Positions 2,923 to 23,980 of a stretch of DNA of 41,262 nucleotides are shown piece by piece. Source of the DNA: Candidatus Cloacimonadota bacterium (lineage in GTDB: Bacteria; Muiribacteriota; UBA6191; JACPRK01); NCBI GenBank assembly GCA_021772705.1, contig JAJFLN010000763.1, positions 1 to 41,262 of the forward strand. The letters run 5' to 3'. Both the position numbers and the translations under genes were made by a program. The notes beneath the pieces are model-generated. The model saw only the letters and a program-made list of their open reading frames with translations, had not been told where the DNA came from and ran no database searches. Every line of letters starts with the position of its first letter. Positions within the stretch are counted from its first letter, which is position 1.

Positions 2923-4455
2923 TCAAACAGCTCTCAGAATGTCCTCTGAACGGGGCGGTTTGCAGTCCCGTAGCAGTCCAAGCACATTTGTCTCCGAGCC
3001 CAGGGAGGTCAGGCTCGATGCTGCCTCCTCCCTGACTCTTCTCTGCAACTCCTCCACATCCTCCGTGCTTGCCTGGCTGATGGCGTGGACGATGTCGTTT
3101 CTCAACCGGCGCAAGACCGTCAGGTTCAAACGGGAGCCGTCAATCAGACTCCCCTTGGGCACCAGATTCAATTGCTGCCTTCCATGTTGAACCCTGGACT
3201 CCCTTCCTTCCAGCAGCCTCTCCAGGTCCGACAGGGAGCAGCTGGGGACGACACTGGTGTCGAATCCCTGTCCCACCTTCACCTCTCGCAGGAGGATCTT
3301 CTGACGCAGAAAGTAGCGCCAGCAGAGTTCCAGAGCGTTGACGAGGGTGAGAAACGCACCGTTCCGCTCGTTTGCGCGCAACTGAACCGCTGCCGCCGTG
3401 ATCCGTGTCAACAGCAGGCCCCGCAGATGGTTCTCGTCAGCCAGGAAGAGCTCCTGGGTGAACTGGGCACTGTCTCGACGATCCAGCGCCAGGCGAACGA
3501 GCGCCCGGGCTGGATGATCCCGTGCCAGGTCTGGCGGCAGGGGCAGGCTTGCCAGTCGGCTCACGTCCAGCCCGAGCCAGGCCTCCAGGAATCGGCTCCA
3601 ACCAAGCACGATGGCAACCTTCGACTCTGTATCCCGGGTGAAGTATCCGGCCACACCGGGACTCCTCAAGGCCTGGTCAATACGTTCCAGCTGAAGAGTG
3701 GCTGCTCGATAGTCTCCGCGGTCAAAGAGGCTGCAAGCAGAATCGAACTGGCTGATCTGGAAGATCTCGAAGGGATCCGGAAGCTGCCGAAGATACTCGG
3801 AGCCGGTCATGGGCTTGCGCTTACGGGGATCAAAAACCTCGAAATCGGTGTAGAAGATGCTCGCCCCCGGCAGCACCATGCCACTGGTGAAGGAACCGGC
3901 CACCATGGGCTTCTTGGATCCCGAAACGTCAATGGCGATCTCCCGAGCTGCCGTGTCCTCCACCTGCTTCCGGACGGCCTGAAAGGTCTCGGCCGGGTCC
4001 GAACCAGCCACGGCGGTCCAGTGGATGCTGGGCGGCTCAGACCAGACAGTGTGGCCCCTCTCATATGCCTCCAGCAGAAGAACGGCCAGCTTCTCTGCCA
4101 GCTCTCCCGTCTCGGTCGTGGCCAGAATTGCAATGTAGGGGGTTCGCACGGACGTCAGGAAGAGACAGACTGGCTCGTAAGAGAATCCGAGGAGTGAGAT
4201 GGCGAGGTCGAAGTCGCGATCCGGCACGTCTGGATCTCGAACCAGCCTGGGGTAATCGGCTCGCAGCAACGTTCGATAGACGGAGCCCACCAGGGGAAGG
4301 ACTTCACGAACATAGAACGAGACGCCGTCCTCGCTCCTGGCGGCCTCGGAGCGTTCGTCCTCGAGGCGTGCCAGATCAGCGAAAAGCTGATTCCAGTCCG
4401 TCTGATCATCCAGACCTTGCAGCCGATCGATCCGATCTTGAAGCTGAAGCTCCAT
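2923..4455 (-). CDS. CARF-HEPN protein (Csm6/Csx1 family cOA-activated RNase candidate)
   Basis: N-terminal CARF signatures: ISLLGFSYEPVCLFL (the LGxSxxP strand), YIAILATTETGE, and the ligand-pocket motif IDVSGSKKPMVAGSF (compare D-[IVL]-T-G-G-T-K-x-M-S). C-terminal HEPN Rx4-6H motif in LRRLRNDIVHAIS. GGAGG RBS upstream of the ATG. Confidence 0.7.
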   Translation of the reverse strand: MELQLQDRIDRLQGLDDQTDWNQLFADLARLEDERSEAARSEDGVSFYVREVLPLVGSVYRTLLRADYPRLVRDPDVPDRDFDLAISLLGFSYEPVCLFLTSVRTPYIAILATTETGELAEKLAVLLLEAYERGHTVWSEPPSIHWTAVAGSDPAETFQAVRKQVEDTAAREIAIDVSGSKKPMVAGSFTSGMVLPGASIFYTDFEVFDPRKRKPMTGSEYLRQLPDPFEIFQISQFDSACSLFDRGDYRAATLQLERIDQALRSPGVAGYFTRDTESKVAIVLGWSRFLEAWLGLDVSRLASLPLPPDLARDHPARALVRLALDRRDSAQFTQELFLADENHLRGLLLTRITAAAVQLRANERNGAFLTLVNALELCWRYFLRQKILLREVKVGQGFDTSVVPSCSLSDLERLLEGRESRVQHGRQQLNLVPKGSLIDGSRLNLTVLRRLRNDIVHAISQASTEDVEELQRRVREEAASSLTSLGSETNVLGLLRDCKPPRSEDILRAV

Positions 4456-4866: not shown

Positions 4867-6057
4867 TTAGCCTGACAGCACTCCCGTAGGATGGCAGAGA
4901 AGCCGGTGCAGAATCTGATGAAACTTGCGTCGGTCAGCTTCATCATCGTTCCCGGGAGAAGCAAGGTTTCGGATCGTGGCGATAAAGGCTCGGGCCTCCT
5001 CCGTGCTGCACTCGGCCTTCCGGCGCACCGCATCCAGATCCAGATTCTTCAGGACACTCAGGACCGGTGGTGGCGGCGGTGATGCGGGCTCGAGCGAGGC
5101 CTTTCGGGCATGCAGATCCCGTACACGGTCCAGTCCGATCTCTCCAATCCGTTCTATCATGGCCTCGTGACCGACGAAACCGAGGTAGGAAGCCAGTTGT
5201 TGCAGCCGGCTCCGCACTGGCCGACTCTCGAAGGCGGCCTCCTTCTCATCCTCCAGCAGACGAATCTCCTCTGCAGCCTCATGGTCGGGGATAGACTTCA
5301 GAAGGCCGGCAATCCAGCATCTGATCTGGAACAGCAAGGGACGCGCCGAGTGCTGAGTAGCTTCCTCGAGAGATCCGGCTGAATTCAGGGGGTCCTTGCT
5401 CTCTTCGTCTATTCTGCGTTTGAGGTCCAGTGGATCTACATCTCCCTGATCGAAGGAGTCGGAAGTTGCGCGAAGGAGCCTCTCGAACTTCTGAATGTCG
5501 AGTCGTCCCTTGGCCCAGCGCCGACCAGCGTTGATACCCAGGGCCCGGATGAAGGCGCCAGGGTGCTCCGGAAGAGGAACTCCCAGCAGCAACCGCTTGT
5601 TTCGAAAGCGGTCCACGTCGACTGCGATCTCCTGAAGACAATCCTTGAGTTCATCCTCCGGGGAATGCAGGTACCCGATTGTTGCCTTACGGAGGCGGAA
5701 GTACGCCTGGCGAATGCCGGAAGCACCAGCCTGACCAAACATGAGAGTGTCCCCTCCTCTGTCAGGCATCTCGGCAGTCCAACTGGCATACATGGCCATC
5801 AACTGATACGAGCTGGCGGTTCCACCGGACCTGACTTTACTGGCAGTCCTGGCAGGGTCGCCGGGTGCCTCCCCGGCGGCGCCCAGGCCGCCGGCCCTTT
5901 CGGTCGACGTGGTATCTTTCGGTTCCCTGTCAGGCTCCAGAGCAGCTTCAACCTGGGACTCAAGCTGACCCGGATCCTCGTCCCAGTCGACCGACTCCTT
6001 TACTGAAGTGATCCGCGGGGCTAGACGGATGGCCCGGGGCTTGCGATCGCTGCTCAC
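4867..6057 (-). CDS. hypothetical protein (last gene of a 5-gene coupled operon)
   Basis: 396-aa ORF. Its start overlaps the upstream gene by 4 nt (ATGA). No recognisable motifs. Confidence 0.5.
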   Translation of the reverse strand: MSSDRKPRAIRLAPRITSVKESVDWDEDPGQLESQVEAALEPDREPKDTTSTERAGGLGAAGEAPGDPARTASKVRSGGTASSYQLMAMYASWTAEMPDRGGDTLMFGQAGASGIRQAYFRLRKATIGYLHSPEDELKDCLQEIAVDVDRFRNKRLLLGVPLPEHPGAFIRALGINAGRRWAKGRLDIQKFERLLRATSDSFDQGDVDPLDLKRRIDEESKDPLNSAGSLEEATQHSARPLLFQIRCWIAGLLKSIPDHEAAEEIRLLEDEKEAAFESRPVRSRLQQLASYLGFVGHEAMIERIGEIGLDRVRDLHARKASLEPASPPPPPVLSVLKNLDLDAVRRKAECSTEEARAFIATIRNLASPGNDDEADRRKFHQILHRLLCHPTGVLSG

Positions 6058-7241
6058 TTTTCCGGCCTCCTCCAGTTGATCTCGAACTCCATGGCCTTGT
6101 CGGGCTCCCGGAGCATCTCATTCAGAATGAGAGCTGCGGGATGCCTTTCAGGGAAGCTCGACCGGGCCTCCGCCACCAGCTCTCGGGCGTCCTCGATGGC
6201 ACCGTCCTCAAGCTCCAGCGCGACAGAGAAGTACCAGCAGTTCGCGTTGTACGGGTCCAGCTCGCGGGACTGCTGGGCAGCCCGGCGGCTTGCTTCCAAC
6301 CAGTCCGCAGCGCCGGACTTTCTGGCATCCTTGCGAATCTGACGAGCCTTCTCGAGGTACTTCTGGGCCGCTCCGACGTCGCTCCAGAGAGAGGACAGTG
6401 GCCAGAGAAGCCGGTACTCGATCAGGTTCGTGACCATGTCGATCGATCTCTCACGGGCCTCCTTCGGCAGGAGCTTGAAGAGCAGGTCGCTGGCAAAGGC
6501 CTTCAGAAGCGTATTCTCTATGTTCCAGCCCGGCTGTTTCCATTCGCCCAGCTCGGCCTCGGCGCACCAGGCCTCCACGAGGCGCTGATTCACCCTGCCG
6601 AGCCGGAAGAAGAGTCGCGTGCATTTCTCCACGTTTCCTTTCATGAGACCCGAAACGAGCTTGTCCGGGTCCACCTTCGTAGGGAATGTGGCTGCCGTCG
6701 TCAATCGCTTGTCAGTATTGTTCCCGTTCAGATAGATCACCATCTGCTCGGACCCGGTTGGAATGAACGATGGCTCAACAAATGGAACCTGCAACAGGGG
6801 GCGGTACAACTTGTCCATGACCGAGAAGCAGGTGGCGTTGAGCGGCTTCTGCAGGCAGGCTGTCATGGGATCCTGCAGCTGCTGCAAGAGTGTGCGTTCA
6901 TTCTCCAGAGTTGCCTTCTGGCTTAGCAGGATCACTGCGAGCCTCGGAAATCGCCGGCGAAGATCCTGAAGGGCTTCAATCCCACTGGGGTATGTGGGAT
7001 CGACAGGGTCTTCGAACATGAGATCCATCAGGACCAGATCCGGAAGTGGAGCAGCAGTTTCCACAGCATGCCGCATATACTCGAATGCCTCGGTGGGAGT
7101 CGTCTGCGGTTCCAGGATGTCAAGTTCATAGGGGTAAACGTTTGACAGCTTATCCCATAGAAACTCCAGGTCTTCCACGAGACGCTGATCCTCCCACTGG
7201 TCATCGACAATCATCACTCGACAGGTTGTCTTGGCCGTCAT
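6054..7241 (-). CDS. response-regulator receiver (REC) domain protein with a helical, TPR-like C-terminal region
   Basis: N-terminal CRVMIVDDQ ... DLVLMDLMFED ... AVILLSQK pattern, which is typical of a CheY-like receiver with an Asp in the LMDL strand. 4-nt overlaps with both neighbouring genes. Confidence 0.6.
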   Translation of the reverse strand: MTAKTTCRVMIVDDQWEDQRLVEDLEFLWDKLSNVYPYELDILEPQTTPTEAFEYMRHAVETAAPLPDLVLMDLMFEDPVDPTYPSGIEALQDLRRRFPRLAVILLSQKATLENERTLLQQLQDPMTACLQKPLNATCFSVMDKLYRPLLQVPFVEPSFIPTGSEQMVIYLNGNNTDKRLTTAATFPTKVDPDKLVSGLMKGNVEKCTRLFFRLGRVNQRLVEAWCAEAELGEWKQPGWNIENTLLKAFASDLLFKLLPKEARERSIDMVTNLIEYRLLWPLSSLWSDVGAAQKYLEKARQIRKDARKSGAADWLEASRRAAQQSRELDPYNANCWYFSVALELEDGAIEDARELVAEARSSFPERHPAALILNEMLREPDKAMEFEINWRRPEK

Positions 7242-8086
7242 TTTACCGCCCTCCTTCGCACCCTCAGTGCCAGGGTCTCCAGGCCTCCCAGGAGCGTGTC
7301 CCGGTGGCTCAGGAAATCCAGGATCGCCCGACAGGCTGACTGGCTTGCGGACAAGTTCGCCAATGCGATCTCGGTCACGCCGCGAGTACTCTCTCCCACT
7401 CTACGGTACAGTTCAGCCAGGTGCAATTGCTCCGTCACGCCGGAGAGATCCATGGCCATTGTCTCCTCGAAACGCATCGCAATGGAGCCCGACACGAGCC
7501 TGTTCTCGGCTCTGGCGCTTTGCAGATCGGCCCGGGCCTCTTCCAGATCACCGGGGCTCAGGTGCCGGTCTCGCCGTGCCGCTTCCTCCACCCTGAGAGA
7601 GAACAATCGGCTCGAGTTCCGGCAATCATGCAGCAGCGTGCCCAGTCGACGGGATGTGGCATCGCCGAGGCTCCGGACCTCCGTCGGTGCCAGGCTGTCT
7701 CGCAATGCACGACGCAGATCATCCGGTGCCGGAGATTCCATTCGACCGAGTTCCTGTAGCCGCTGTCGCAACCGGTCCACCGGGACGGGCATTCGCTCGT
7801 ACAGGCACGCGCCCAGGCGGACAAGTTGAGCCTGCAAGGGAACTGCCAGGAATCGGGCCGGCACCTCGGCTCCCAGTACCAGAACCCCGGAGCGGACGCC
7901 CTGGGCGAGCCGGATACTCAGCAATGGAGCCGTGATGGCAGCTTCCGTTCCGGCAGCGCCGGGGGCAACAAGGATGTGACACGCTGATGCTGCCCCGAGC
8001 ATCGCCGCTGCGCCCAGTTGGTGGCGAGCCAGCACCTCACTGAGTACATCATGGAGCAAGCGGGAGGAGCAGTGAATCTGGGTCAC
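7238..8086 (-). CDS. hypothetical protein
   Basis: 282-aa ORF. Translationally coupled to its neighbours (4-nt overlaps at both ends). Confidence 0.5.
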   Translation of the reverse strand: MTQIHCSSRLLHDVLSEVLARHQLGAAAMLGAASACHILVAPGAAGTEAAITAPLLSIRLAQGVRSGVLVLGAEVPARFLAVPLQAQLVRLGACLYERMPVPVDRLRQRLQELGRMESPAPDDLRRALRDSLAPTEVRSLGDATSRRLGTLLHDCRNSSRLFSLRVEEAARRDRHLSPGDLEEARADLQSARAENRLVSGSIAMRFEETMAMDLSGVTEQLHLAELYRRVGESTRGVTEIALANLSASQSACRAILDFLSHRDTLLGGLETLALRVRRRAVK

Positions 8087-8556
8087 TTCGCCTCCTCTCC
8101 TGCGCTCCGGCCAGCCCTGCGACAGCGGGATCGCCGTGAAAAACGTCGAGCACGGAGACGCGACTCCGGTCTCATCGTTTCAACGTGACTGTCTTCTGAT
8201 GCGGCCTCTGGGTTCTGGAGATAACCCGGCCAGATGGGAAGTCGAATCTCATGCACGGTCTCACTACGCGCGGCAGACCACTCCGGCCGGTGCTGTTCCA
8301 GTTGCTCCAGAGAGAAAGCCAGCAGAAGCAGGAGACCGGAACGCTCCGGAGTTCGTTCATCAACTGTCTGCTCGATCAGTCTCATACCAGCTCGGTCATC
8401 GAGGCCTCGGATCGCCCCCACCCGGACCTGTGTCCCTCCGGCGACGGGAAAGGAGATCCTGCGGCGATCATCGTCGTGAAAGCGCAGGGCTGCCAGGATC
8501 GCTTTGAAAATAGACTCTCTGGCTGACATGGAAGTTGTATTCGCTGGACACTTCAT
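8083..8556 (-). CDS. hypothetical protein
   Basis: 157-aa ORF coupled by 4-nt overlaps. Confidence 0.45.
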   Translation of the reverse strand: MKCPANTTSMSARESIFKAILAALRFHDDDRRRISFPVAGGTQVRVGAIRGLDDRAGMRLIEQTVDERTPERSGLLLLLAFSLEQLEQHRPEWSAARSETVHEIRLPIWPGYLQNPEAASEDSHVETMRPESRLRARRFSRRSRCRRAGRSAGEEAK

Positions 8557-9497
8557 CGTGACGGCTCCTCGAACCCGGTGTCCCCTTGCACCTCGGCTGT
8601 GAATCGGAGCATGTGAGCATCCACCCTGCGAGTCAACTCTTCAAGCGCCGCCCACCAGGCAGTCCCCAGAGAGGAGCCATCCGGGCTCTCGGCGTTGACC
8701 CCTTGCAGGTCTCGTTGCCAGTGGAGCCGGTACGACTCGGTCATTCCGCCGTCCTCGAGTAGGCTGTCTATTCCTGGTCCGATGGGCAGAAGGAGATAGG
8801 CAACTGCCGCAATTCCGTGCGTCGTTGACCCTCCTGCCGAGTCTGCCAATGAGTCGAGTGTGAGGGCGGAGCGGCAGATTGCATTCCGCTGTTGCCAAAG
8901 ATCCCTACACAGGACTAGAATCCGTTCCCGGTCTTCAGTCTCTACCTTGCCATCCAGCAGGTTCGGCAGTACGAGTCCGGCGGCGGACAGGCCCATGAGC
9001 AGAGTGGTCGAAGCGTTCATGACCCTCTCCGAAGTGGAGGTCAAGACCTGAGCCAGATCGACCGGTCCCGGAGACAGGGTAGGGTTCATCTGCAGGCGGT
9101 CTCTCATGCTTCGGACCAGGGCGAGGGCCTCCTGATCGGAGAATGCCCAGCCACGAGGACCGCGAACCAGCCTGGGGATGATGTCCTCGTTCGGTTCCAG
9201 CTCTCCCCCGGTCCAGACCACTCCCGCTGCGTGGGCGTTGCCGCGGAGAATCTGAAGACCCAGGTCCGATTGCCCGAGCATGGCATTGTCTGTCACGATC
9301 AGTATCGCGTTGGGAAATGTCGGTGGTTCATTCCGCCACCCACCACAAGGAGCCTCGATGCGAATGGAGCAGTCACCGTTTGATGCTGCCAGCGAAGACA
9401 TTTCCGCGAACAGCTCTCTCTTCACAGCGCTGTCGTGAATGACGACTATCTCTTTCAGATTCCCTGTCACGGTTACCTCACCTCCAGAAGGAGCCAA
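8553..9497 (-). CDS. hypothetical protein (first gene of the minus-strand operon)
   Basis: 314-aa ORF followed by a 4-nt overlap with the next gene. About 320 bp of noncoding sequence lies upstream. Confidence 0.5.
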   Translation of the reverse strand: MAPSGGEVTVTGNLKEIVVIHDSAVKRELFAEMSSLAASNGDCSIRIEAPCGGWRNEPPTFPNAILIVTDNAMLGQSDLGLQILRGNAHAAGVVWTGGELEPNEDIIPRLVRGPRGWAFSDQEALALVRSMRDRLQMNPTLSPGPVDLAQVLTSTSERVMNASTTLLMGLSAAGLVLPNLLDGKVETEDRERILVLCRDLWQQRNAICRSALTLDSLADSAGGSTTHGIAAVAYLLLPIGPGIDSLLEDGGMTESYRLHWQRDLQGVNAESPDGSSLGTAWWAALEELTRRVDAHMLRFTAEVQGDTGFEEPSR

Positions 9498-10474: not shown

Positions 10475-11053
10475 GTGAACACTCGAAACAGACGGAACTT
10501 GCTGCTGCGGTCTCTGGTGGTCCTGATCAGTCTTTGTCTGAACCCAGGAATCGCAGAGGCACGGGCCACCGCCATTGTGCAGGTTCCGCCGGGTTCGCAG
10601 GTCTTCCTGGACGGCAACCTCGTTGCAACCGGCGCAGTACGGCTCGAGAGCATCCCGCCGGGGGAGCACATCATCGATGTGATCCTTGAGAACGGACGGC
10701 AAGGCCGAGCGTCCATCCGATCCCTGGCAGACATCGACGTGGTCAAGACATTCGGCTTCGACGGCAATGTCTCCCGGCAGAGCAAGAGTCCCGCACAGCA
10801 CCCGGGACCCTTCAGGAGCAATCGGGCCCTACGCATCCAGAGAGGTCCTCGTGGCCGACAGGTTACCCCGGCGCCCCCTCGCCCCCGAACTTTCGGCCGG
10901 CGTGACGGAATGTCCAGCTCGGAGGCAACGGTGCGGAATCTTCGGATGCGGCCCCTGACTCGTCAGCAGTCGGTCCGCCGCAGGAATCGAGGCAGAGGAG
11001 ACTTCGGCAAGGTCATCGCCGCTCTCATTGCCATCAAGATGCTGTCTCGGTGA
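10475..11053 (+). CDS. secreted PEGA-domain protein
   Basis: Start chosen at the in-frame GTG 10475, which follows a GGAGG RBS. The N-terminal basic and hydrophobic signal peptide is RRNLLLRSLVVLISLCLNPGIAEA. PEGA-like block VQVPPGSQVFLDGNLVATGAVRLESIPPGEHIIDV. Confidence 0.5.
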   Translation: MNTRNRRNLLLRSLVVLISLCLNPGIAEARATAIVQVPPGSQVFLDGNLVATGAVRLESIPPGEHIIDVILENGRQGRASIRSLADIDVVKTFGFDGNVSRQSKSPAQHPGPFRSNRALRIQRGPRGRQVTPAPPRPRTFGRRDGMSSSEATVRNLRMRPLTRQQSVRRRNRGRGDFGKVIAALIAIKMLSR

Positions 11054-13659: not shown

Positions 13660-15770
13660 TAGTGGATCTCTCCTTTTGTCGTGGAGCGCGGCCGCGTGCG
13701 ATCTGGCACCCAGGAGAGGCGGCCTCTGCTCGCAACCAGACGGTAGGCAGCCACGCCTTCCGTGAGGGTGCTCCAGAGTGGGACCAGAACTAGCTGCTCC
13801 ACCAGAGTCTGAAGCCGCTCACCACTGAGCCCACTTGCCTGGACCCGTTTGGCCACTGCTTCGATGGCCGCCTCGTCGCAGGTGAGTACAATCCCTCGCT
13901 CACGATGCAGCCGTTCCACGGCGATCTTCTGAATCCTCCTGCGTACGAGTTCGGCGTATTCCTCGTCGGTCAATGGATTGAATGGAACCACCAGAAGAGT
14001 CCGGAGGAGCGCCAGTTCGTCGGAAAGAAGCGAAAGCGCCCCCTTCTCTTGCTTGCCCGGTTTGCCCGTGTCTTCCCTCTGCAGAAAACCGAGCTGTGTT
14101 GTGGAGATCGGCCCTGTCGTGTCAACCGAGAGGATGAAGATGGCCCGCCGGACGAGACCTGCCCACTCACCTGTGCCGGAGTATCCGTTGTTCAAGAGAT
14201 TGGCGAGGGCTGTCAGTACAGCCGGAGGCGCCTGATCACAGTGCTCCAGGTGAATCACCGAGAAGGGCTTCTGCATCAGAAAACCGGAGAGCTGGCCCGG
14301 CGCTGGATCCCCTTCCGGGATACCTAGCAGGTACGCCGGGTTCCCTGGAATCGATGCCAGGTCCACCAGCAACAGCCTGTCAGGTCCGTAGAGCTCCATT
14401 GCAATGGCTCGTGCCATGGTGTTCTTGCCGACGCCAGCCGGGCCCGCGAAGAGAAAGGCCGCATCGGGGCGCTCGGGTCGGGAGCGGATGCCTTCGGGAC
14501 TACAGCGGGCAGCGATGGCTCGCGCCACCTCCATGCACGCTGGTCGCTGAGAGCCAACGTACTCGTATAGCGTGTCCGATAGTCTCTGCGGGTCCCGGTA
14601 ACAGGGCTGCTCCACGCGCTGGATCGGAAGGCCTGCAGTTCTGGCCGCAACGGCTCTCAGATCTTCAGCCGATGGTGCCCGACCCTCGGCTTCAGCCAAA
14701 GCGGCAGCTCCCTCGAGAAGCCTGAGCGCCGACTCCGGCAGGGCCGGGCTCTTGATGTAATGATCCGCCAGGACGACGGCCTCATCCAGGTTGAAGGATT
14801 CCGGAGCCTTCCCGATCCAGTCCTCCACTGGCCCTCTCCACTGCTGAAAAGCAGAGCGGCACTCGGTACGACCCATGGACCGGACATAGACCAACCTTGC
14901 CCTGAAGGGCAGAGACCCGGGCACCAGAGTCAACTTCTCCAGTTCATGAGACGTGGTGAGCCAGAGCATGCATCCTCGATCGATGCAGAGAGCTGCCAGG
15001 GAAGGGGGCATGGCACCGTAGAGCTCCGACAGATCGCCGTGAATCAGGAGGTGGCCCAGGGAGGCCGCGATCCTCAGGTCCTCCAGGACCGCCATGGCCG
15101 ACTCGCCGGTCAGGGCAGTCGTGAGACGGCTCGTAGCTTGCCAGACCGAGCCGGAGGGGTACTGCTTCATCCGGCCACTGACGAAGTTAGGAAGCATCAC
15201 TTCGTGGAGACTACCCTGCTCGACTCCCGGGCCGGCGACGACGATGCAGGAGGTCTCAGCTCCAGGCCGGGTTGCGTGAGCCATCTCCAGGAGCTCCCGT
15301 TCTCTTCCCACGGGAGGCAAACGGGGCACACCGAAGAGTGACTGGCGCCGGATGAATCCGGTCAAGTTCTCTCCGGCGAGCCTCCGCAATGAGGGGGCCA
15401 GCCCGACGGAACGTGCGCGATCGGGCTCCTCGGCATTCAGTGCCACGATCTGATGGATCAGCTGTTGCACGTTCACCGGCAACGTCATCCGGCCAACGAG
15501 CGACCCGTCGATGGCAGACGTTGATGGTAGTGGTTCGCCATCAAGATAGTCCGCCAGGGCCATTCCAGTCTTCGCTGCCAGCGCTGCCGTATCCAGAGTC
15601 AGTGCATCCTGGAAGTGGAGTCTGCCACCGGCCGTGTCCGCATCGGCCAGAGCCAGAAAGCCCAGCTCAACAAGAGGTGTCGTATCGAGTGGGTTGTTCA
15701 ATGCAGCCCGACGGAGTTCGAGGGTTCTCTCCGGCAGAGAGCTGGCCCTGCTGATCGTTTCCTGCTTCAC
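13659..15770 (-). CDS. ClpA/ClpB-like double AAA+ protein with degenerate Walker motifs
   Basis: D2 region AFLFAGPAGVGKNTMARAIAMELYGPDRLLLVDLASI resembles the Clp D2 P-loop (GKN instead of GK[ST]). The Walker-B-like region is VIHLEHCDQ. The D1 P-loop is degenerate (IVVAGPGVEQGS). 1-nt overlap with the HerA-like gene. Confidence 0.6.
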   Translation of the reverse strand: MKQETISRASSLPERTLELRRAALNNPLDTTPLVELGFLALADADTAGGRLHFQDALTLDTAALAAKTGMALADYLDGEPLPSTSAIDGSLVGRMTLPVNVQQLIHQIVALNAEEPDRARSVGLAPSLRRLAGENLTGFIRRQSLFGVPRLPPVGRERELLEMAHATRPGAETSCIVVAGPGVEQGSLHEVMLPNFVSGRMKQYPSGSVWQATSRLTTALTGESAMAVLEDLRIAASLGHLLIHGDLSELYGAMPPSLAALCIDRGCMLWLTTSHELEKLTLVPGSLPFRARLVYVRSMGRTECRSAFQQWRGPVEDWIGKAPESFNLDEAVVLADHYIKSPALPESALRLLEGAAALAEAEGRAPSAEDLRAVAARTAGLPIQRVEQPCYRDPQRLSDTLYEYVGSQRPACMEVARAIAARCSPEGIRSRPERPDAAFLFAGPAGVGKNTMARAIAMELYGPDRLLLVDLASIPGNPAYLLGIPEGDPAPGQLSGFLMQKPFSVIHLEHCDQAPPAVLTALANLLNNGYSGTGEWAGLVRRAIFILSVDTTGPISTTQLGFLQREDTGKPGKQEKGALSLLSDELALLRTLLVVPFNPLTDEEYAELVRRRIQKIAVERLHRERGIVLTCDEAAIEAVAKRVQASGLSGERLQTLVEQLVLVPLWSTLTEGVAAYRLVASRGRLSWVPDRTRPRSTTKGEIH

Positions 15771-15944: not shown

Positions 15945-16391
15945 ATGGACGATCCAGTTATCCGTCGCCGCTGGCTAGGCCGCCGGTGGCCAGCCTTCGT
16001 GAAGAGTGTCGAGACGAACAGAAGTTCCAGGAAGCAGGCGGGGCCGTTTGTCTGTCGCTACCTGGAAGACTTCTCCCGATCTCTACCGGACGACCTCGAG
16101 ACCGGCGACTTACCCACGGCCCAGCTCATCGAGCTGGGCGACATTGCAGAGGGTCTCCTGGAGCTTCTGACTCCGCTGGAGGCACAGCTCACAACTGAAT
16201 GTATCTCCTCGGCACTCGCCGCAGCCGGGTCGGTCCTGTCTGCGGAAGCGGATCGATTTCACCCCGAAACCCAGGAGCAGCAATCGCAAAGGGCGGCCCG
16301 GATCATCGAGGAGATTCGTGCCCGACGGGCCGCCCTTATCTGGACTGGACGGCCCGGTGTGGGAAAGGGAGGGGAATCAGAGCGGAAGTGA
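15945..16391 (+). CDS. hypothetical protein
   Basis: ATG at 15945 chosen so as not to overlap the divergent minus-strand gene. The longer ORF 15615..16391 would overlap that gene by 155 nt. No motifs. Confidence 0.25.
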   Translation: MDDPVIRRRWLGRRWPAFVKSVETNRSSRKQAGPFVCRYLEDFSRSLPDDLETGDLPTAQLIELGDIAEGLLELLTPLEAQLTTECISSALAAAGSVLSAEADRFHPETQEQQSQRAARIIEEIRARRAALIWTGRPGVGKGGESERK

Positions 16392-16461: not shown

Positions 16462-17169
16462 ATGAGCCAGAAGATCGACAGGAACCAGGTTGAGGAATGT
16501 GTATCGGAACTCCAGCGTGTTCGACGAGAGATCGCCGAGAACCGGCGGCGGCTCGAGGCCTGTGACTCCAGCCAGACGGAAGCCAGGAACATGCTGGAGA
16601 GTCACGGTCGCAAGCTCGCGGGGGCCGACAATCGGCTCTGTACGGAGATTGTGACTATCTGCTCCGGACTGCTTCGGGGACTTGGATGGCGCCGAATTCG
16701 CCATGCTGGCCTGATAGACGACTGCATGATAGCAGCCTTCTCCGAGGTGCTGGCCAGGGTGGAGAAGCTCAAGATCCCCCGGGCCTTCCTGTCCTACCTC
16801 ATCCGTTCGTTCAAGAACGAGCAGGGGCGCGTCATGGCAGGTCTGGCCGCTGACGCCTCGAACCAGGTCCCTCTGGGAGAGTCCGTCCATCCATCGGGCC
16901 GGCCTCCTCAGGAGGACGTCGAGGATGCCGATGAGAGGGCCCGGAATCTGGAGAAAATCCAGATTCATGTCGGCTGCATTCCCAATGAGAAGTGGCGAGA
17001 GGCCTTCGATCGGTACTACCTCCGAGGCGAGGACTACTCCACCGTGGCAACGAGAATGTCGATTCCCAAGGGGACGGCCAAGGCCTGGAGTTTCCGGGGC
17101 AAGGAGGCTCTCAGGGAGCACCTGCAAGTCCTGGTCTCCAAGGGGGCTGGCGGTTGCGCTCCGCCGTGA
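16462..17169 (+). CDS. ECF-type (group 4) RNA polymerase sigma factor with an N-terminal coiled-coil extension
   Basis: GGAAGGGAG RBS before ATG 16462. Region-2-like GLIDDCMIAAFSEVL ... FLSYLIRSFKNE. Region-4 HTH WREAFDRYYLRGEDYSTVATRMSIPKGTAKAWSFRGKEALREHL. Confidence 0.7.
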   Translation: MSQKIDRNQVEECVSELQRVRREIAENRRRLEACDSSQTEARNMLESHGRKLAGADNRLCTEIVTICSGLLRGLGWRRIRHAGLIDDCMIAAFSEVLARVEKLKIPRAFLSYLIRSFKNEQGRVMAGLAADASNQVPLGESVHPSGRPPQEDVEDADERARNLEKIQIHVGCIPNEKWREAFDRYYLRGEDYSTVATRMSIPKGTAKAWSFRGKEALREHLQVLVSKGAGGCAPP

Positions 17170-17319
17170 GGTTCCCCGAGGTCTCAAGAAATGGTCAGCT
17201 TCCCTGGACGGCGACCCGCCCCCGGGGCTAGCCTGTCCCGTCGAGAAGCCCGGCCGTGCGAACTGCAGCCGCAAACCGGCTGAACGGATCGCCTCCGAAT
17301 TGGAACCAGGGAGGAACCT

Positions 17320-18867
17320 TTGAGGCAGCAGGCGAACATCCTACTGAAAGACCCCGTTGACTATCAGACAGCCAGCACAGGAGATACGATATTCATCAGC
17401 ACCCTGGGAATGTCACCTGGCACAGTGGTCCAGGCCCTCTATAGCATTCTGGAGCCGGAGACAGACGGGAAGGAGACAGGCCGTGTAGACTGGGTGGACC
17501 AGATCGTGACTGGCGTCAGCGCCCCATCAGCCTGGCCTGATGAGGACCGCATTCAGACAATACTGGAGACGGGCGAGGAGTATAGTATTCAGTCGGCGAA
17601 GCAGATTGCAAAGCTGCTTGACCAGGCCCAGTCATTCGGCCTTCTTGAACCCGATTCTGAGCCGAAGACGCTCATCAAGGACGTGACCGATTCGAACTGC
17701 ACGAGCGTTCGTGACGCCCTGCTCACTCATGTTGAGCGACGGCGGAACGAGATTGGTCCCGATGGCCGGATCATCTTCGACTTCACCGGTGGAAGGGTCG
17801 GCATGTCCTACTATCTGGGTTTTGCGGCTCAGTTGCTGGGGGAAGCCAATGATCAACTTCTCTATACGAATGTAAACCGAGGCAAGGGCGACTACTTGCT
17901 CTCCACGCCGGGACCGAGACAGGGGGAAACCCCTCGGAGCCGACCGGAAACGACCTGGATTCCGAAGGGCCGGGACCATATCTTCCGGGTTCCATTTCCG
18001 CTGGCACGCATTCCCTTCGTGAAGTCGATGGTCGCTTTGAACAATGGCAGTTCCATCGTCCAGGGCGCTCTGCATTTCGACACCATCATGAGTGAACTGG
18101 AGTCCTACACTGCCCTGGGAATCTTTGCCCGGGGGGTCGCCCACGAGGGCCTCAATCTGATCCGAGAACTGCGAGAACTGGGCGGGAGCCGGCCGGCGGC
18201 AGCAGAAGAGACCCGGGCGTTGCCGGAACAGCTGGGCAGCAAGGACGCGCTCTTTCGCCTCCGGCGCCTGGAAGCCTACCTGACGGCTTTTGATGTACTG
18301 GCAGGCAGGAACCCAGGCGGTGCAGTTCCAGAAGCCAGAGGCCCCGTGAACCTGTACGAGATGATAAAGGCGGAAGCTGACTGGGTACGAGACGACATCG
18401 CTCCCGATCTGAAGGTGGAAATCAAGGTGGCCGAGGAACTCAGACCCTCGATCCACGCCGAGGCACTTCAGCTGGCGATCATCCTGTTGATGAAGAACGC
18501 TGCTCAGGCCGCCCGCAGGGCCGCCCCGCCGCGGATTGTTGTGATTGCCGAGGCCCATCACGGTTACATGTCACTCTCGATTGACAACAATGGCCCTCCT
18601 TTCCCTCCGGAACTCTTGCCCTACGCGAAGAAACTGATCCGGCCGGTCTCGGTACTGGCGGCGATGCGTGCGGCCGAAGCCGGCCAGCAGAGGGAATCGG
18701 AGAAGCGGCGAGGTGTCGGTTTAGCAATCGCCAGTCAGCTACTCGAGGCTCTCTGGGCGGGCCAAGAGGTTCATGATGAAGACAGACGGCCAATGTCGCC
18801 ATTGGAGATCGAGAGCGAGGGTTCCCTGTGCGGAGCTCGATACCGGCTGTTGCTGCCTTTGGAGTGA
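17320..18867 (+). CDS. CARF-domain sensor histidine kinase (CARF - DHp - HATPase_c)
   Basis: TTG start preceded by a GGGAGG RBS. CARF motifs: DTIFISTLGMSPGTVVQALYSIL and IIFDFTGGRVGMSYYLG. The candidate DHp H-box is ARGVAHEGLNLIRELREL. HATPase_c boxes: N-box LQLAIILLMKNAAQA, G1 IDNNGPPFP, G2 GVGLAIASQLLE. Confidence 0.6.
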   Translation: MRQQANILLKDPVDYQTASTGDTIFISTLGMSPGTVVQALYSILEPETDGKETGRVDWVDQIVTGVSAPSAWPDEDRIQTILETGEEYSIQSAKQIAKLLDQAQSFGLLEPDSEPKTLIKDVTDSNCTSVRDALLTHVERRRNEIGPDGRIIFDFTGGRVGMSYYLGFAAQLLGEANDQLLYTNVNRGKGDYLLSTPGPRQGETPRSRPETTWIPKGRDHIFRVPFPLARIPFVKSMVALNNGSSIVQGALHFDTIMSELESYTALGIFARGVAHEGLNLIRELRELGGSRPAAAEETRALPEQLGSKDALFRLRRLEAYLTAFDVLAGRNPGGAVPEARGPVNLYEMIKAEADWVRDDIAPDLKVEIKVAEELRPSIHAEALQLAIILLMKNAAQAARRAAPPRIVVIAEAHHGYMSLSIDNNGPPFPPELLPYAKKLIRPVSVLAAMRAAEAGQQRESEKRRGVGLAIASQLLEALWAGQEVHDEDRRPMSPLEIESEGSLCGARYRLLLPLE

Positions 18868-18938: not shown

Positions 18939-19865
18939 ATGGCTGCGGAAAATCTACCACCACTGAGGCATGCTCGACAAGATACCAGGCCGTTGGCCTG
19001 GGTGCTCGGGCTTGTGGCGCTGGGCTGCCTCATCCAGTTTGTCACGTCGTCGGCAGCCCGTCCTCCGTATCGGGCGCCTTCATACAGGCCCGGCAGCGCG
19101 CCATCAGGCGGCGTTCCGGCCAAGTCCGGTTCCCGCACGGCTCGACGTCCGTCTCCCCCGGTTTCGCTGCCTACCTGGCACGCCCCACGTGCGAAGCCTG
19201 CTGCGACTACCCGATCTGCCACCGACTCTCCCGTTGGAGCTCCGTCGGAGCGGTCACGCAGGCCTATGGCGAGCAAGACGACAAAGAAGATCTGGCCCGG
19301 TTCCCGCAACACCAGGGTAAGGACCGTTCTGGCGCCCGTACCACGAAGATCGGAGCCCGCGTCGGAGTCCAGAAAACGCCCCGGAGCCCGTAGTCTTCGA
19401 TTCGTCTCCCCCGCCCGGACTTACGCCGCCGTTGTTACCTCCAACCTGGTTCACTTCCGAATTCCGGCAGCCGGGAGAAGCCAGTGGGTGTGGAATGGCC
19501 AACACCTGGAGCACGGGGAACTCGAGTATGGCTGGGAAGTCGAGGTGACGGACCATCACGGCAGGGTCTACAGGATCGCCTGTTCGCGATTCATGAGAGC
19601 CGGAGAGCCCATGCGCCATGGGCGTCTCTCGGATCTGCTGCACGACGGCCGGGTCGATGTCTGGCGGGTTCTGGGGAGCAAGGAAGCAACCGTTAGCCGT
19701 CTGATGTTTCGAGTTACCGTCGACTCCGGGGATGTCATCCTGTGGTCGAATCACAGTCCAACAATTCGGCACCTCTTCGGAGGAAAGCCCCGAAGGGTCA
19801 TGCTTGGTGGCTTCACACCCTATCGTGGAGACTTCCGCCAGGCAGTCCGGATCAAGTACGACTGA
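18939..19865 (+). CDS. membrane-anchored protein with a Pro/Arg-rich linker and a C-terminal globular domain of unknown function
   Basis: N-terminal hydrophobic helix LAWVLGLVALGCLIQFV, then a low-complexity P/R/S/A-rich stretch, then a roughly 150-aa conserved-looking C-terminus. Confidence 0.5.
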   Translation: MAAENLPPLRHARQDTRPLAWVLGLVALGCLIQFVTSSAARPPYRAPSYRPGSAPSGGVPAKSGSRTARRPSPPVSLPTWHAPRAKPAATTRSATDSPVGAPSERSRRPMASKTTKKIWPGSRNTRVRTVLAPVPRRSEPASESRKRPGARSLRFVSPARTYAAVVTSNLVHFRIPAAGRSQWVWNGQHLEHGELEYGWEVEVTDHHGRVYRIACSRFMRAGEPMRHGRLSDLLHDGRVDVWRVLGSKEATVSRLMFRVTVDSGDVILWSNHSPTIRHLFGGKPRRVMLGGFTPYRGDFRQAVRIKYD

Positions 19866-20071: not shown

Positions 20072-20863
20072 ATGACTTCCCTCCAGATTCACATGCTGAC
20101 CTGGCCCACGATATTGACGGCTGCCGTCGGTCTGCTATTCGGGACAGTCTCGTCGGCGACGGGCTGCCTCTTTCTCCTCGCACTGTTCGTCGCCTATGGA
20201 AGCGGATTCAGAACCGTGCCGATCGGGCACGGAGCACTACTGGTTCTACTCGGAGTCCGGGTGCCGTCTGCCCATTTGGGGGAGGGACTGCTCTGGATTC
20301 CGCCCTATCCCATTGGAGATCTCCTGATCGTAGACCTGCGGGAGCAAACGTTGCCGCTCAGAGAACTAGTCTTTTACACGAAGGACGACATTCCGGTGCG
20401 GCTTGATGTGAATCTACAGTATCGAATCCTCGACATCTTCTGCTATTCCAATGCAGAGAGGGCCGTCGATGCTTTCCAGGCCGCCGTTCAGGACACTCTT
20501 CGTCGCACCGCATCATCCGTTCGGGCCCTGGAGCTTCCGGGGAACAGCGGAACAGCCCACAATCTCGGCCTGGTGAGGAACTCGGTCAACTCCGGCACGT
20601 TGCAGGACACATGTCGCCGCTGGGGATTGAGCCTGGTTCAGGCACATCTGACGAATCTTCGGCTGCCAGCCGCGATCGAAGCTGCCACCACAGCAGCGAA
20701 GCGCTCCGAGTATCTCGCCGAGATCGTCAGGAAGCTGGCATCAGAGCTGGGCATTTCGACGGAGCGCGCCCTGGACATGATTCAGGTCGACTTCGGCCAG
20801 ACTACCCGGAACATCATCGACGGCGACTTGCTTCGCAACCTGCTCGGTGGGGGTGCCAGGTGA
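20072..20863 (+). CDS. SPFH / Band-7 (stomatin-prohibitin-like) membrane protein
   Basis: AAAGGAGG RBS. N-terminal TM helix. SPFH core FRTVPIGHGALLVLLGVRVP ... LLWIPPYPIGDLLIVDLREQTL ... FYTKDDIPVRLDVNLQYRI. Confidence 0.75.
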   Translation: MTSLQIHMLTWPTILTAAVGLLFGTVSSATGCLFLLALFVAYGSGFRTVPIGHGALLVLLGVRVPSAHLGEGLLWIPPYPIGDLLIVDLREQTLPLRELVFYTKDDIPVRLDVNLQYRILDIFCYSNAERAVDAFQAAVQDTLRRTASSVRALELPGNSGTAHNLGLVRNSVNSGTLQDTCRRWGLSLVQAHLTNLRLPAAIEAATTAAKRSEYLAEIVRKLASELGISTERALDMIQVDFGQTTRNIIDGDLLRNLLGGGAR

Positions 20864-21872: not shown

Positions 21873-23276
21873 GTGAAGAAGTGGCTCTATCGTTACGAAA
21901 CCAAGGGGATCCAGTCCTGGATACTCGATAGTAATCTGATGCGTGATCTGGCCGGGGGAAGCGCGCTGGTAGAGAGCCTGACCGACGAGGCCGAGAAACA
22001 GGCGAAGATCGCCGGGGCTTCCGAGATCGTCCAGGCCACCTCGGGCTCGATGACCGCTGTCTTTCCCGACCAGAACTCTCTACAGAAGTTCGCGTCCACC
22101 TGGCCCATGGTTGTCGAGTGCCGGGCTCCCGGACTGCATCTGGTCCAGGCCTGGACGCTCGAGTCCGAGAGCCTCGGTAAACTGTTTCGCAAGCTTGGTC
22201 ATCGGCGTAACCGGGTACACGTCAGCGGCTTCGAGGCAGGTCCCTGGGTGCTGCGATCCGGTCGCTCGGGCCTTCCTGCCGTCCCCACACCGCCCGATAT
22301 TCGGAGCAAGGCTCGCATGACTGCCCTGGACGAGGCCGCGGTCGCGAAGGAGCGGGCACGAAACATGCAGGAAGCGGTGGGCGCTGTGACGGGGGGGCGA
22401 CCGTGGGGCGACTTCGAGCAGGAGGTGGATGACTGGATAGAAGGTCCGGTTGGCGTCATTCACGCCGACGGCAGCGGGGTGGGCCAGCGGCTCATCAACC
22501 TGGAGAACGACTACGAGAAGTTGAGAGCGTTCTCCGAGGCGTTGAAGGAAGCCACCCGGGATGCGACGGCCCGTGCTCTGGAAACACTGCCTGCAACCAG
22601 GAAGCTGCAGGCCCGGCCAATCGTCTCGGCTGGTGATGACCTCACCTACATAGTGCCCGGGGCGAGGGCACGGGCATTCGCGACCCGGTGGCTGCTTGCC
22701 CTGGAGGACGAGACGAAGAAGCGTGAAAGTGAGCTGGGAGGTGGGCTGTGGGGAGGGGCAGGAATCGCGTATGTCCACCGCCGTTTCCCCTTCTCCCGTG
22801 CCTATGAAATGGCCGAGAGTCTCTGCAAGGATGCCAAAGAGGCCGTGCGAGGGCGCCAGCAGAGTGTCATCGCCTTTCGGAGGCAGACCGCATCTCTGGC
22901 CGACAACGATTCTCCTGGTGGGATTGCCTGGGTGATCGAGGCCGGTGAACCGGGCTCGCCGCTGGATCGACTGGTTGAAGTCTTGAGAGAGCTTCCGAGA
23001 GGGCCTCTCCGAACCTGGCTGACCCTGTTCGAGCGAGGCGACGACGTCCGGGCGAGGCAGTTGTGGCAGCGGACGCAGGAAGTGGCGGACACGAAGGTCT
23101 GGGACCGTTTCCGGAGTGCCCTGACCGACGTCGGCGCAGACCCGAATACGGGCCGACTCGACACCGCCACCACGGGCAGGGCCGTCGCTCTCGGGGGAGT
23201 GACGACGCCCATCCGGGACGGACTTGCCTTGCGCCACATCGAAAAGGAGGTTCAGTCATGGCCTGCCGCCGATTGA
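21873..23276 (+). CDS. compact Cas10/mCpol-like palm-domain protein (GGDEF-type nucleotide cyclase fold), with no HD domain and no zinc finger
   Basis: GTG start after a GGGAGGAAG RBS. N-terminal YETKGIQSWILDSNLMRDLAGGSALVESL (the Cas10-type GIQxFI ... GGS motif). Metal-binding VIHADGSGVG. Cyclase motif IVSAGDDLTYI (GGDD-like). Post-motif GGAGIAYVHRRFPFSRAYEMAESLCKDAKEA. Lacks the Cys cluster expected for a Cas10 treble-clef domain. Confidence 0.6.
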   Translation: MKKWLYRYETKGIQSWILDSNLMRDLAGGSALVESLTDEAEKQAKIAGASEIVQATSGSMTAVFPDQNSLQKFASTWPMVVECRAPGLHLVQAWTLESESLGKLFRKLGHRRNRVHVSGFEAGPWVLRSGRSGLPAVPTPPDIRSKARMTALDEAAVAKERARNMQEAVGAVTGGRPWGDFEQEVDDWIEGPVGVIHADGSGVGQRLINLENDYEKLRAFSEALKEATRDATARALETLPATRKLQARPIVSAGDDLTYIVPGARARAFATRWLLALEDETKKRESELGGGLWGGAGIAYVHRRFPFSRAYEMAESLCKDAKEAVRGRQQSVIAFRRQTASLADNDSPGGIAWVIEAGEPGSPLDRLVEVLRELPRGPLRTWLTLFERGDDVRARQLWQRTQEVADTKVWDRFRSALTDVGADPNTGRLDTATTGRAVALGGVTTPIRDGLALRHIEKEVQSWPAAD

Positions 23277-23980
23277 GATTCTCCCTGTCGAGCTACTGGC
23301 ACATCGGCTCCGGAGTAGGCGCCGAGGCCGTGGCCGACGCTCAGGTTCTGCGAGACGGCGACGGGTTACCGCTCGTTCCCGGCCGAACGGTGAAGGGACT
23401 GTTGCGAGAGGCGATGGAACTGGCCACTCGATCCGGACGAGTCGCGGCCGATCGTCCGGTTCGCTGGTTTGGTTCCTGCTTGCCGGGAGTTCCTCCTCCT
23501 ACGCCAGGCCAGGAAACACCTGAAGTGGGAGATGTACAGGAGGTCCGCCTGGAAGAGGGTCGGTTCTCCACCCACGAGGGAGCACTCTGGTTCGGGTCGG
23601 CCTGTCTTTCCGACGACTGGCGCCAGTGGGCACGGAGGCTCAAGAAGAACTCCGTCAGTTCCAGCTCTTCGGAGAGCGAAAACAGCAGTGAAGCGGGCTC
23701 AAATTCGCAACAGAACGAACTTGATCTTTTCACGTTGCAATCACTCTTCACCTATGTCGCTTCGACCGCCATCGACTCTCGTGGAGTCGCCCGCGAGCAC
23801 TCGCTGCGCGTCTCGGAAGTCACGGTGCCCATGGATCTCACCTGCCAGGTTCGGGGGCCTGATGACGATCTCTCCTGGGTAGAGGACCTCCGGGCGAGCC
23901 TTCCGCTGCTGCGAGCGCTCGGAAAGCGACGAAGCCGTGGCTATGGGCGGGTCGAGGTGACCATGGAGGAGGACTCATGA
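23258..23980 (+). CDS. RAMP superfamily protein (Cas5/Cas7-like)
   Basis: ATG 23258 follows an AAAAGGAGG RBS and overlaps the upstream gene by 19 nt. RAMP motif LPLVPGRTVKGLLREA. C-terminal G-rich loop LGKRRSRGYGRVEV. Confidence 0.7.
   Translation: MACRRLRFSLSSYWHIGSGVGAEAVADAQVLRDGDGLPLVPGRTVKGLLREAMELATRSGRVAADRPVRWFGSCLPGVPPPTPGQETPEVGDVQEVRLEEGRFSTHEGALWFGSACLSDDWRQWARRLKKNSVSSSSSESENSSEAGSNSQQNELDLFTLQSLFTYVASTAIDSRGVAREHSLRVSEVTVPMDLTCQVRGPDDDLSWVEDLRASLPLLRALGKRRSRGYGRVEVTMEEDS

Follow-up and report, generated by a model that had tools for sequence, protein, structure and literature searches.

The known effectors of cyclic oligoadenylate (cOA) signalling by type III CRISPR-Cas systems are mostly nucleases, a deaminase, NADases, pores, and proteases, and their action is cell-damaging or irreversible. 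Among them are the CARF-effector fusions (Csm6/Csx1, Can1/Can2, Card1, the CARF-deaminase Cad1, Cam1, and the CARF-wHTH protein Csa3), which carry a nuclease, deaminase, pore, or DNA-binding domain. Here we describe a 515-aa protein in which a CARF domain is joined to the DHp and catalytic ATP-binding (CA) domains of a histidine kinase, encoded at 17320..18867 on the plus strand of a contig from Candidatus Cloacimonadota bacterium (GTDB phylum Muiribacteriota; GenBank assembly GCA_021772705.1, contig JAJFLN010000763.1); the whole stretch analysed, 41,262 nucleotides long, is called the window below. The protein resembles the CARF-effector fusions in its N-terminal CARF domain with post-beta1 and post-beta4 motifs, in having a Cas10 cyclase as a neighbour, and in its modular sensor-effector logic, and it differs from them in that the effector is a DHp+CA histidine kinase, so that its output would need receivers and would be reversible. 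No CARF-histidine kinase fusion was found in the literature searched, with an earlier listing in the 2020 CARF census still possible, and the protein appears to be a new type of effector within the known CARF sensor-effector scheme, accompanied by a conserved multi-gene candidate phosphotransfer module.

Type III signalling has been linked to sigma factors by other routes. In CalpL-CalpT-CalpS, type III cOA leads to sigma-dependent transcription, and a sigma factor of the extracytoplasmic function (ECF) type lies in the effector cluster (PMC11229360; bioRxiv 10.1101/2024.05.08.593097). The window is alike in that a type III signal is linked to an ECF sigma factor, a link proposed here from the genes alone, and differs in having a CARF sensor and a predicted His-Asp phosphotransfer where CalpL/T/S has a SAVED sensor and irreversible proteolysis of CalpT. 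None of the open reading frames (ORFs) scanned in the window gave a match to Lon, to SAVED, or to a CalpT-like protein. An earlier, sequence-only reading of this DNA had named CARF-Lon proteases acting on anti-sigma factors as the known route from CARF to sigma; that was mistaken, as the known Lon protease, CalpL, senses with SAVED and not with CARF (PMC11229360). Sigma factors also stand among the type III accessory genes of Craspase (gRAMP-Csx29, Csx30, Csx31, and CASP-sigma) and of SAVED-CHAT/PCaspase (PCc-sigma and the Ser/Thr kinase PCk) (bioRxiv 10.1101/2023.06.23.546230). These systems are similar to the window in that such genes include a sigma factor and, in one of the two, a protein kinase as well, but they are protease cascades, and PCk has no nucleotide sensor and is a Ser/Thr kinase of the Hanks type, whereas the kinase here is itself a predicted cOA sensor and is of the two-component superfamily. 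The protein belongs to the CARF and histidine kinase superfamilies and lies outside the CalpL/T/S, Craspase, and SpoIIAB systems.

Classical cytoplasmic histidine kinases (NtrB-like HisKA proteins; ThkA, PDB 3a0t/3a0r; and the engineered LOV kinase YF1, 4gcz) have the same layout of sensor, linker, DHp with an 'AHE..N' H-box, and CA domain, and their receiver partners are encoded adjacently, as in the related loci described below. The protein here differs from them in its CARF input, an atypical ATP lid that lacks a recognisable F box, the lack of a direct Pfam HisKA match, and its CRISPR-Cas context. Control of an ECF sigma factor by a histidine kinase and a receiver, with no regulated proteolysis, is known from CseBC-SigE of Streptomyces and PhyK-PhyR-NepR-EcfG of Alphaproteobacteria; unlike in those systems, the main receiver protein of the window (REC B, below) shows no recognisable PhyR-like sigma-mimic domain, NepR, or DNA-binding domain of the OmpR type. 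A receiver-fold protein is also known at type III loci: for Cam2, an accessory protein with a transmembrane (TM) segment and a receiver (REC) domain, canonical phosphorylation was deemed unlikely as it has no associated histidine kinase (Hoikkala et al., PMC11229360), whereas the loci described here do have a kinase, and its gene is coupled to those of the receivers.

The CARF-kinase gene begins with TTG, preceded at 6-7 nt by the ribosome-binding site GGGAGG, and this start ('MR...') agrees with that of a homologue, P0004. The codon-position GC of the kinase and sigma factor ORFs is that of the other genes (the window has 61% GC). The fusion is neither a chance ORF nor an assembly artefact, because it recurs at 36-41% identity in independent metagenome contigs. 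The product is cytoplasmic, with no TM segment found in its 515 residues (maximum KD19 hydropathy 1.13), and both Pfam Cas_NE0113 (PF09623, a CARF family; 25.9 bits against a gathering score of 23) and Pfam HATPase_c (34.4 bits against 26.4) score above their gathering thresholds. We regard the CARF-DHp-HATPase_c architecture as virtually certain.

The sensor domain spans about residues 20-245 (17377..18054, plus strand). Eight PADLOC CARF models match it, the best being Csx1 PDLC01354 (E 5.6e-9), whose alignment covers residues 23-242 of the protein and profile positions 3-171 of 189; no PADLOC CARF model reaches past residue 242, and none of these models, which are named by architecture, spans the kinase half. 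The full-length homologue P0013 likewise passes PF09623. Searched against PDB, the kinase-family profile finds Crn1 SSO2081 and the CRISPR-associated chain 7z55 on the CARF side, and the closest structural matches of the domain are Cad1-CARF, Csm6, Csa3, and Crn1. The best-conserved blocks are the two ligand-pocket motifs that the sequence-only reading had picked out, and both are indeed present: ISTLGMSPG (17395-17421, plus strand, residues 26-34), the polar, Ser/Thr-rich post-beta1 motif, and DFTGGRVGMSY (17779-17811, plus strand, residues 154-164), the post-beta4 motif of D-x-T-G-G-basic form, which is invariant in all homologues. With a curated-model match, the CARF variant of the fold, and both motifs, the domain is, as that reading had proposed, a CARF domain with its pocket motifs and not a generic Rossmann fold, and the Pfam, PADLOC, and structural matches bear this out.

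The kinase half consists of a DHp helical hairpin (18055..18309, plus strand, about residues 246-330) and a HATPase_c domain (18352..18864, plus strand). His275 (codon 18142-18144, plus strand), which lies in 'FARGVAHEGLNL', stands opposite the H-box His of P0009, 'LGRFARGVAHEVNNP' (BLASTP E 6e-12, residues 258-433), with 'LGRFARGVAHE' aligned to 'LGIFARGVAHE'; P0009 is a HisKA + HATPase_c protein by Pfam. His275, Asn279, and Leu280 of the H-box are invariant in the family, as are Asn393 of the N box, Asn423, Gly425, and Pro427 of a variant G1 box (N423-x-G425-x-P427), and Gly465, Gly467, and Leu468 of the G2 box (G465-x-G467-L468). The GHKL/HATPase_c domain called from the sequence alone therefore holds up together with its N and G2 boxes, but G1 departs from the consensus, with Asn in place of Asp. 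The same N-x-G-P-P variant is found in P0005, a HisKA + HATPase_c protein by Pfam, and in PDB 3a0t ('NSGPPIP'), which we take to be the ThkA catalytic domain solved with ADP.

Comparisons beyond the family lead to ordinary histidine kinases. In an exhaustive HMMER search the first matches outside the family (E about 1e-4) are such kinases, with alignments that extend from the H-box across the CA domain, and on its kinase side the family profile finds 3a0t (E 6.6e-5), 3a0r, CusS 7zp0, and NifL in PDB, so that the only meaningful PDB chains matched by it are histidine kinases and CARF proteins. A structure model built from a three-sequence alignment was used for fold class only (a single-sequence AlphaFold2 model, with a predicted local distance difference test score (pLDDT) of 37, was discarded); it shows beta/alpha alternation over residues 22-225, a long helix at 246-286 that bears His275, a second helix at 308-329, and an alpha/beta sandwich. 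The top 50 Foldseek matches in PDB, with the LOV kinase 4gcz first, comprise histidine kinases and related phosphotransfer proteins and nothing else; most of them are DHp+CA cores. The DHp-like helix pair with a candidate phospho-acceptor His that had been proposed between the CARF and CA domains is thus recovered as a modelled hairpin whose invariant His275 aligns with HisKA H-boxes, as expected of a class I histidine kinase. Kinase competence is predicted to be likely, and falls short of certain because no F box is visible, the residue after His275 varies, and Pfam HisKA gives no direct score.

The family is extremely rare. The exhaustive HMMER search, which covered 1.84 billion representative proteins, returned only two further clusters of relatives; word-indexed homologue searches with the kinase, the sigma factor, and the family alignment returned the query alone, and alignments of the kinase and of REC-like A (below) scanned against genome, metagenome, and viral contigs and plasmids gave no further loci. 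One relative, P0004 (480 aa, 36% identical in the multiple alignment), lies on a 15-kb contig (L001), where its gene ends 184 bp from a convergent, complete type III-B cmr operon encoding Cas10 (1024 aa, with HD and GGDD motifs), Cmr3-6, Cas6, and Cas1. The other, P0013 (521 aa, 41% identical), was obtained by cluster look-up as the full-length form of P0003 and lies on a 7.9-kb contig (L003) that holds a single operon, in the order 88-aa gene, CARF kinase, 295-aa, 276-aa, 534-aa, and 103-aa genes, and ECF sigma factor; cas proteins compared with this 7.9-kb contig by tblastn gave no match. Cas10 is found at both loci with enough contig to show it (2/2, the window and L001), and an ECF sigma factor at both loci that extend far enough for one (2/2, the window and L003), the L001 contig ending before any sigma gene could show. 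Homologues had been expected to co-occur with cOA synthases, and both informative loci do encode a Cas10 with a cyclase motif (AGDD in the type III-D system of the window, GGDD in the type III-B system of L001). The sequence-only reading had named three findings that would overturn it, namely a generic Rossmann fold without the CARF pocket, a central region with no DHp fold or conserved His, and homologues that never occur with cOA synthases; each was looked for, and none is the case.

In the related loci the kinase is encoded together with putative receivers, as for class I histidine kinases, and homologues of these partners lie in the window in a minus-strand operon that spans 9497 to 4867. 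REC B (6054..7241, minus strand) has a receiver domain with the acidic pair D13/D14, the phospho-acceptor candidate D73, S107, and K132, followed by a middle region and a TPR-like tail. Pfam Response_reg matches it at 24.1 bits (E 4e-5), below the gathering score of 30.2, and a purpose-built REC hidden Markov model (HMM) gives p 3e-7. The REC B family aligned by hhalign to a receiver seed alignment (CheY, Spo0F, PhoB, OmpR, NtrC, and NarL, with sequences entered by hand) reaches Prob 95.7 and E 8e-9, and the receiver residues (acidic pair, phospho-Asp, Thr/Ser, and Lys) are kept in 3/3 loci. The L001 homologue, a 528-aa protein encoded directly upstream of the kinase with its stop overlapping the kinase start, matches REC B of the window with a BLASTP E of 6e-5, a score attained by 0/1000 shuffles; it matches the 534-aa protein of L003 with E 4e-49. 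A profile of these two proteins matches REC B by hhalign over 275 columns (E 2e-6, Prob 89), and every other window protein tested gave E > 0.2; the homology of REC B to the two extends across some 300 residues. REC B homologues are thus present in 3/3 loci and near the kinase in L001 and L003; in L003 the 534-aa homologue shares an operon with the kinase, REC-like A, and the 276-aa protein.

REC-like A (8553..9497, minus strand), the first gene of the window operon, is homologous to the gene downstream of the kinase in L003 and in a further related locus, L002: BLASTP matches the 295-aa protein of L003 (E 5e-15) and a partial copy in L002 (E 6e-13), and both homologues are translationally coupled to the kinase. 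Its similarity to receivers is weak, although in register (hhalign E 0.004, Prob 8%; the purpose-built REC HMM, p 0.014-0.03), and is only suggestive of a receiver. In the window and L003 alike, REC-like A is followed by a gene for a protein of about 280 aa and then by REC B; the ~280-aa gene overlaps the REC B gene in 3/3 loci, the upstream protein of L001 being partial. In the window it encodes 282 aa (7238..8086, minus strand) and is translationally coupled upstream of REC B, with positional counterparts in L003 and L001. The 282-aa protein and the 276-aa protein of L003 have no similarity detectable by hhalign; a shared 'H..xN' His motif that had been considered for these two and the L001 upstream protein was dropped (hhalign E 0.2). 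The conserved set, judged from gene order and homology, is the CARF kinase, REC-like A, the coupled ~280-aa protein, and REC B. The operon is completed by a 157-aa member (8083..8556, minus strand) whose ends overlap the neighbouring genes and by a 396-aa protein (4867..6057, minus strand), the last gene, which overlaps the REC B stop; domain scans gave no family match for either. Nor was a DNA-binding or anti-sigma domain recognised in REC B of the window, where a weak TPR-like match is all that appears; in the L001 copy there is no more than a weak hint of a winged helix.

The ECF-type sigma factor (16462..17169, plus strand; 235 aa, most likely starting at the ATG at 16462) has a helical N-terminal extension of about 60 aa. 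TIGR02937 (sigma70-ECF) matches it at a borderline 43.0 bits against a cutoff of 42.9, the Pfam region models stay below their gathering scores, and comparison with PDB finds the ECF sigma factors AlgU, RpoE, and SigW across sigma2 and sigma4; only these two regions are present, and they match ECF models, as in group 4. A directly upstream ORF of 148 aa (15945..16391, plus strand), a possible operon member without a family match, has coding-like codon-position GC and is called as a gene in L006 (Logan SRR15505515, 5.4 kb), a contig with the same sigma protein, the same gene arrangement, and the 148-aa gene upstream; L006 is an independent assembly, so the organism of the window has been sampled at least twice. 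No domain of a cognate anti-sigma factor, a feature not universal among ECF groups, was recognised in any neighbouring ORF scanned. A scan for sigma-70 promoters and terminators was uninformative.

The link between sigma factor and kinase recurs, as an ECF sigma gene lies in the L003 operon, where Sigma70_r2 (30.8 bits) and Sigma70_r4_2 (35.8 bits) both score above their gathering thresholds. The sequence-only reading had placed the kinase where an anti-sigma gene would follow its sigma gene; this is true of the window but is not conserved, the L003 sigma gene lying four genes downstream of the kinase, and the kinase is therefore unlikely, on this comparison, to be a stand-in for an anti-sigma factor. 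For the same reason the direct substrate of the kinase is most likely REC B. The suggestion that the REC protein might be the phospho-acceptor thus gains strong comparative support, with its homologues gene-linked to the kinase in L001 and L003.

The type III-D effector module begins 3 kb downstream of the kinase on the same strand. Its Cas10 (21873..23276, 467 aa) is unusually short; it has no HD domain and carries the palm-2 cyclase motif SAGDD (PADLOC Cas10 203 bits, Cas10d 162 bits; a match to Pfam Cas10-Cmr2_palm2). It is followed, all on the plus strand, by a RAMP protein (23063-23980; Pfam RAMP), Csx10/Cas5 (23977-25422; PADLOC Cas5_IIId, 144 bits), a second RAMP protein (25419-26822; Pfam RAMP), a small ORF (26780-27256), and a TIGR03986 RAMP protein (27253-29496; 284 bits). 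AGDD is among the Cas10 motif variants of effector-bearing loci, and III-D systems, in which HD domains are rare, probably rely on cOA signalling (Hoikkala et al., PMC11229360). Downstream of the REC operon and on the same strand, a Csx1/Csm6-type CARF-HEPN ribonuclease is encoded at 2923..4455 (minus strand; PADLOC CARF1--CARF_HEPN 92 bits, E 1e-26), with the R-x4-H motif 'RNDIVH'; Pfam at E <= 0.01 misses it. Because an AGDD Cas10 and a canonical Csx1 CARF-HEPN protein are both encoded in the window, cOA signalling is very likely, as predicted from these genes, to be active in the island.

CARF domains are dimeric and bind cOA across the dyad, and histidine kinases are dimeric through DHp. 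A CARF dimer on the helix that leads into DHp alpha1 would have the place held by a PAS, GAF, or LOV sensor in ordinary kinases; consistent with this, the top Foldseek match of the model is the LOV kinase 4gcz. We propose that target RNA bound by the type III-D complex would lead Cas10 to make cOA, that cOA would bind the CARF dimer, which would sit immediately atop the four-helix bundle formed by DHp in the dimeric kinase, and that ligand binding would shift the balance between autophosphorylation of His275 and phosphatase activity, in whichever direction. The phosphoryl group would pass to Asp73 of REC B, possibly with involvement of REC-like A, and the phosphorylated receiver would alter the activity of the ECF sigma factor to give a transcriptional response to infection. 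A functional tie of the protein to type III cOA signalling seems to us probable. That it acts as a soluble class-I sensor histidine kinase with CARF input, an accessory effector of the neighbouring type III system in a cOA-gated two-component scheme, is the reading that we favour, with some reserve. The ECF sigma factor is only a tentative choice as the output of the pathway, with a chance that we would put slightly below even. In a still bolder form, a whole His-Asp pathway would have been recruited as a type III effector, with the cOA-gated kinase, a relay through REC-like A, the ~280-aa protein, and REC B, and sigma control without proteolysis; we find this conceivable and rather doubtful.

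Several observations weigh against the favoured scheme. The family consists of just three sequence clusters, and only two of its loci show cas genes and two a sigma gene. The receiver genes of the window lie about 8-10 kb from the kinase on the opposite strand, and no CRISPR array, cas6, or cas1 was found within the 41-kb window. In the kinase itself, Pfam HisKA gives no score directly, no F box is visible in the CA domain, the G1 Asp is replaced by Asn, and the three homologues differ in the residue that follows the H-box His (E, D, or S); the last two of these make the strength of the autokinase uncertain. With a mean pLDDT of 48.8 the structure model is of low confidence, so its fold matches are taken only as supporting evidence. 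As for the output, a generic sigma4 match is all that the L003 sigma factor has in common with that of the window, no anti-sigma or DNA-binding domain was recognised that would link REC B to sigma, and when 13 upstream regions, taken from the window and L003, were searched for a common promoter motif of the bipartite, ECF-like kind, nothing exceeded the shuffled controls.

Other explanations divide over what the two halves of the protein do. The GHKL domain could be an anti-sigma factor of the SpoIIAB/RsbW type, which would bind the ECF sigma factor, perhaps phosphorylate Ser/Thr of a partner, and free the sigma factor on binding cOA, with no His-Asp transfer. This would suit the position of the kinase gene directly after the sigma gene in the window and the lack of a recognised classical anti-sigma factor in the locus scans, and HATPase_c_2 matches the protein weakly (E 1.4e-3, 19 bits). 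That match is below the gathering score of 27.4, however, and ordinary HisKA kinases match equally weakly; the protein has a DHp region with an invariant H-box His, which SpoIIAB and RsbW are without, its closest matches in fold and sequence are DHp+CA kinases and not anti-sigma kinases, the sigma gene is four genes away in L003, and the conserved REC partners would be left unexplained. The GHKL domain is not stand-alone, as in SpoIIAB and RsbW, and no gene for a STAS anti-anti-sigma factor was found among the scanned window ORFs. We reject this explanation as improbable in view of the DHp region with its H-box, the fold matches to kinases, and the gene order of L003. The kinase might alternatively be degenerate, a cOA-regulated scaffold or phosphatase-only module without autokinase activity. 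Its His, N-box Asn, and G2 glycines are nevertheless invariant at an overall identity of 36-41%, and the N-x-G-P-P form of G1 also occurs in P0005, which has full-strength Pfam scores, and in 3a0t; against these stand the loss of the G1 Asp and of a visible F box, the Ser that replaces the acidic post-His residue in P0013, and modest HATPase_c scores (34 bits for the window kinase, 24.8 bits for P0013). We consider such a pseudokinase very improbable.

It is also conceivable, although unlikely, that the two-component kinase works but that its CARF domain is not activated by CRISPR cOA, being mainly a ring nuclease or cOA sink that would turn the signal off, or else responding to another ligand or a protein, and that the module regulates mobile-element or cas expression. 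The CARF families nearest to the sensor, NE0113 and Crn1, are labelled ring nucleases (NCBIfam, PDB), and the gene content of the window, which includes recombinases, a transposase, and a TraG/HerA-like ATPase, resembles that of a mobile element. Ring-nuclease activity is compatible with sensing, however, and the two can coexist, as in Csm6; both informative loci (2/2) adjoin cyclase-competent Cas10 genes, the canonical cOA effector Csx1 is encoded in the same window, and within the CARF domain conservation is highest at the pocket motifs. A precedent for a CARF domain without cOA control is RtcR, in which the domain is reported to be controlled by RtcAB proteins and not by cOA (PMC9650030).

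If the cOA-gated two-component scheme is right, phosphotransfer, the most widespread chemistry of bacterial signalling, would join the list of cOA effectors and would provide a graded, reversible route from the detection of foreign RNA to gene expression. The link between type III systems and sigma factors seen in CalpL/T/S, Craspase, and PCc-sigma would be extended by a mechanistically different route, and the kinase partner that is missing for CRISPR-associated receiver-fold proteins would be supplied. A protein of this kind would also serve as a ready-made adaptor by which programmable RNA sensing could drive two-component or transcriptional outputs. In its bolder form, with a whole His-Asp pathway recruited, the scheme would amount to an RNA-guided transcriptional immunity that is reversible and non-suicidal, and cyclic-oligonucleotide immunity would for the first time be directly connected with two-component signalling.

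Further genes and repeats lie in the rest of the window. Between the kinase and cas10 are encoded a Pro/Arg-rich protein (18939-19865, plus strand) with a single TM segment at residues 19-37 and a beta-rich C-terminus, and an SPFH/Band-7 protein (20072-20863, plus strand; Pfam 53 bits), and both may be membrane-associated accessory proteins of the island. At 11299-15770 (minus strand) lie two overlapping genes, for a HerA/TraG-like P-loop ATPase (PADLOC mad8, 57 bits) and for a ClpB/ClpV-like AAA+ protein with apparently one nucleotide-binding domain, and an IetA-like AAA ATPase lies at 1110-2879 (plus strand); these ATPases may form additional defence or accessory modules. Two copies of a 23-nt direct repeat (35382-35404 and 35453-35475, one mismatch, spaced 71 nt) overlap the 3' end of a minus-strand ORF (35344-36138); they may represent a degenerate mini-array or the end of a transposon. 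A 6.3-kb segment is flanked by direct repeats of about 136 bp (29692-29827 and 36012-36148, 85-86% identical), and two ORFs, 29346-29951 and 36364-36846, the latter with a weak reverse-transcriptase match, share 62% identity over 32 aa; the repeats and the related ORFs suggest an insertion or duplication. Paralogous ORFs, one of which has a PEGA-domain match, are found at 10184-11053, 33178-33933, and 33982-34878 (plus strand; BLASTP E 2e-7 and 1e-4). A Mutator-family transposase and two tandem tyrosine recombinases (36865-41183, plus strand), together with a PcfJ-like ORF (30007-30726), suggest that the whole CRISPR and signalling island lies on or beside a mobile element.

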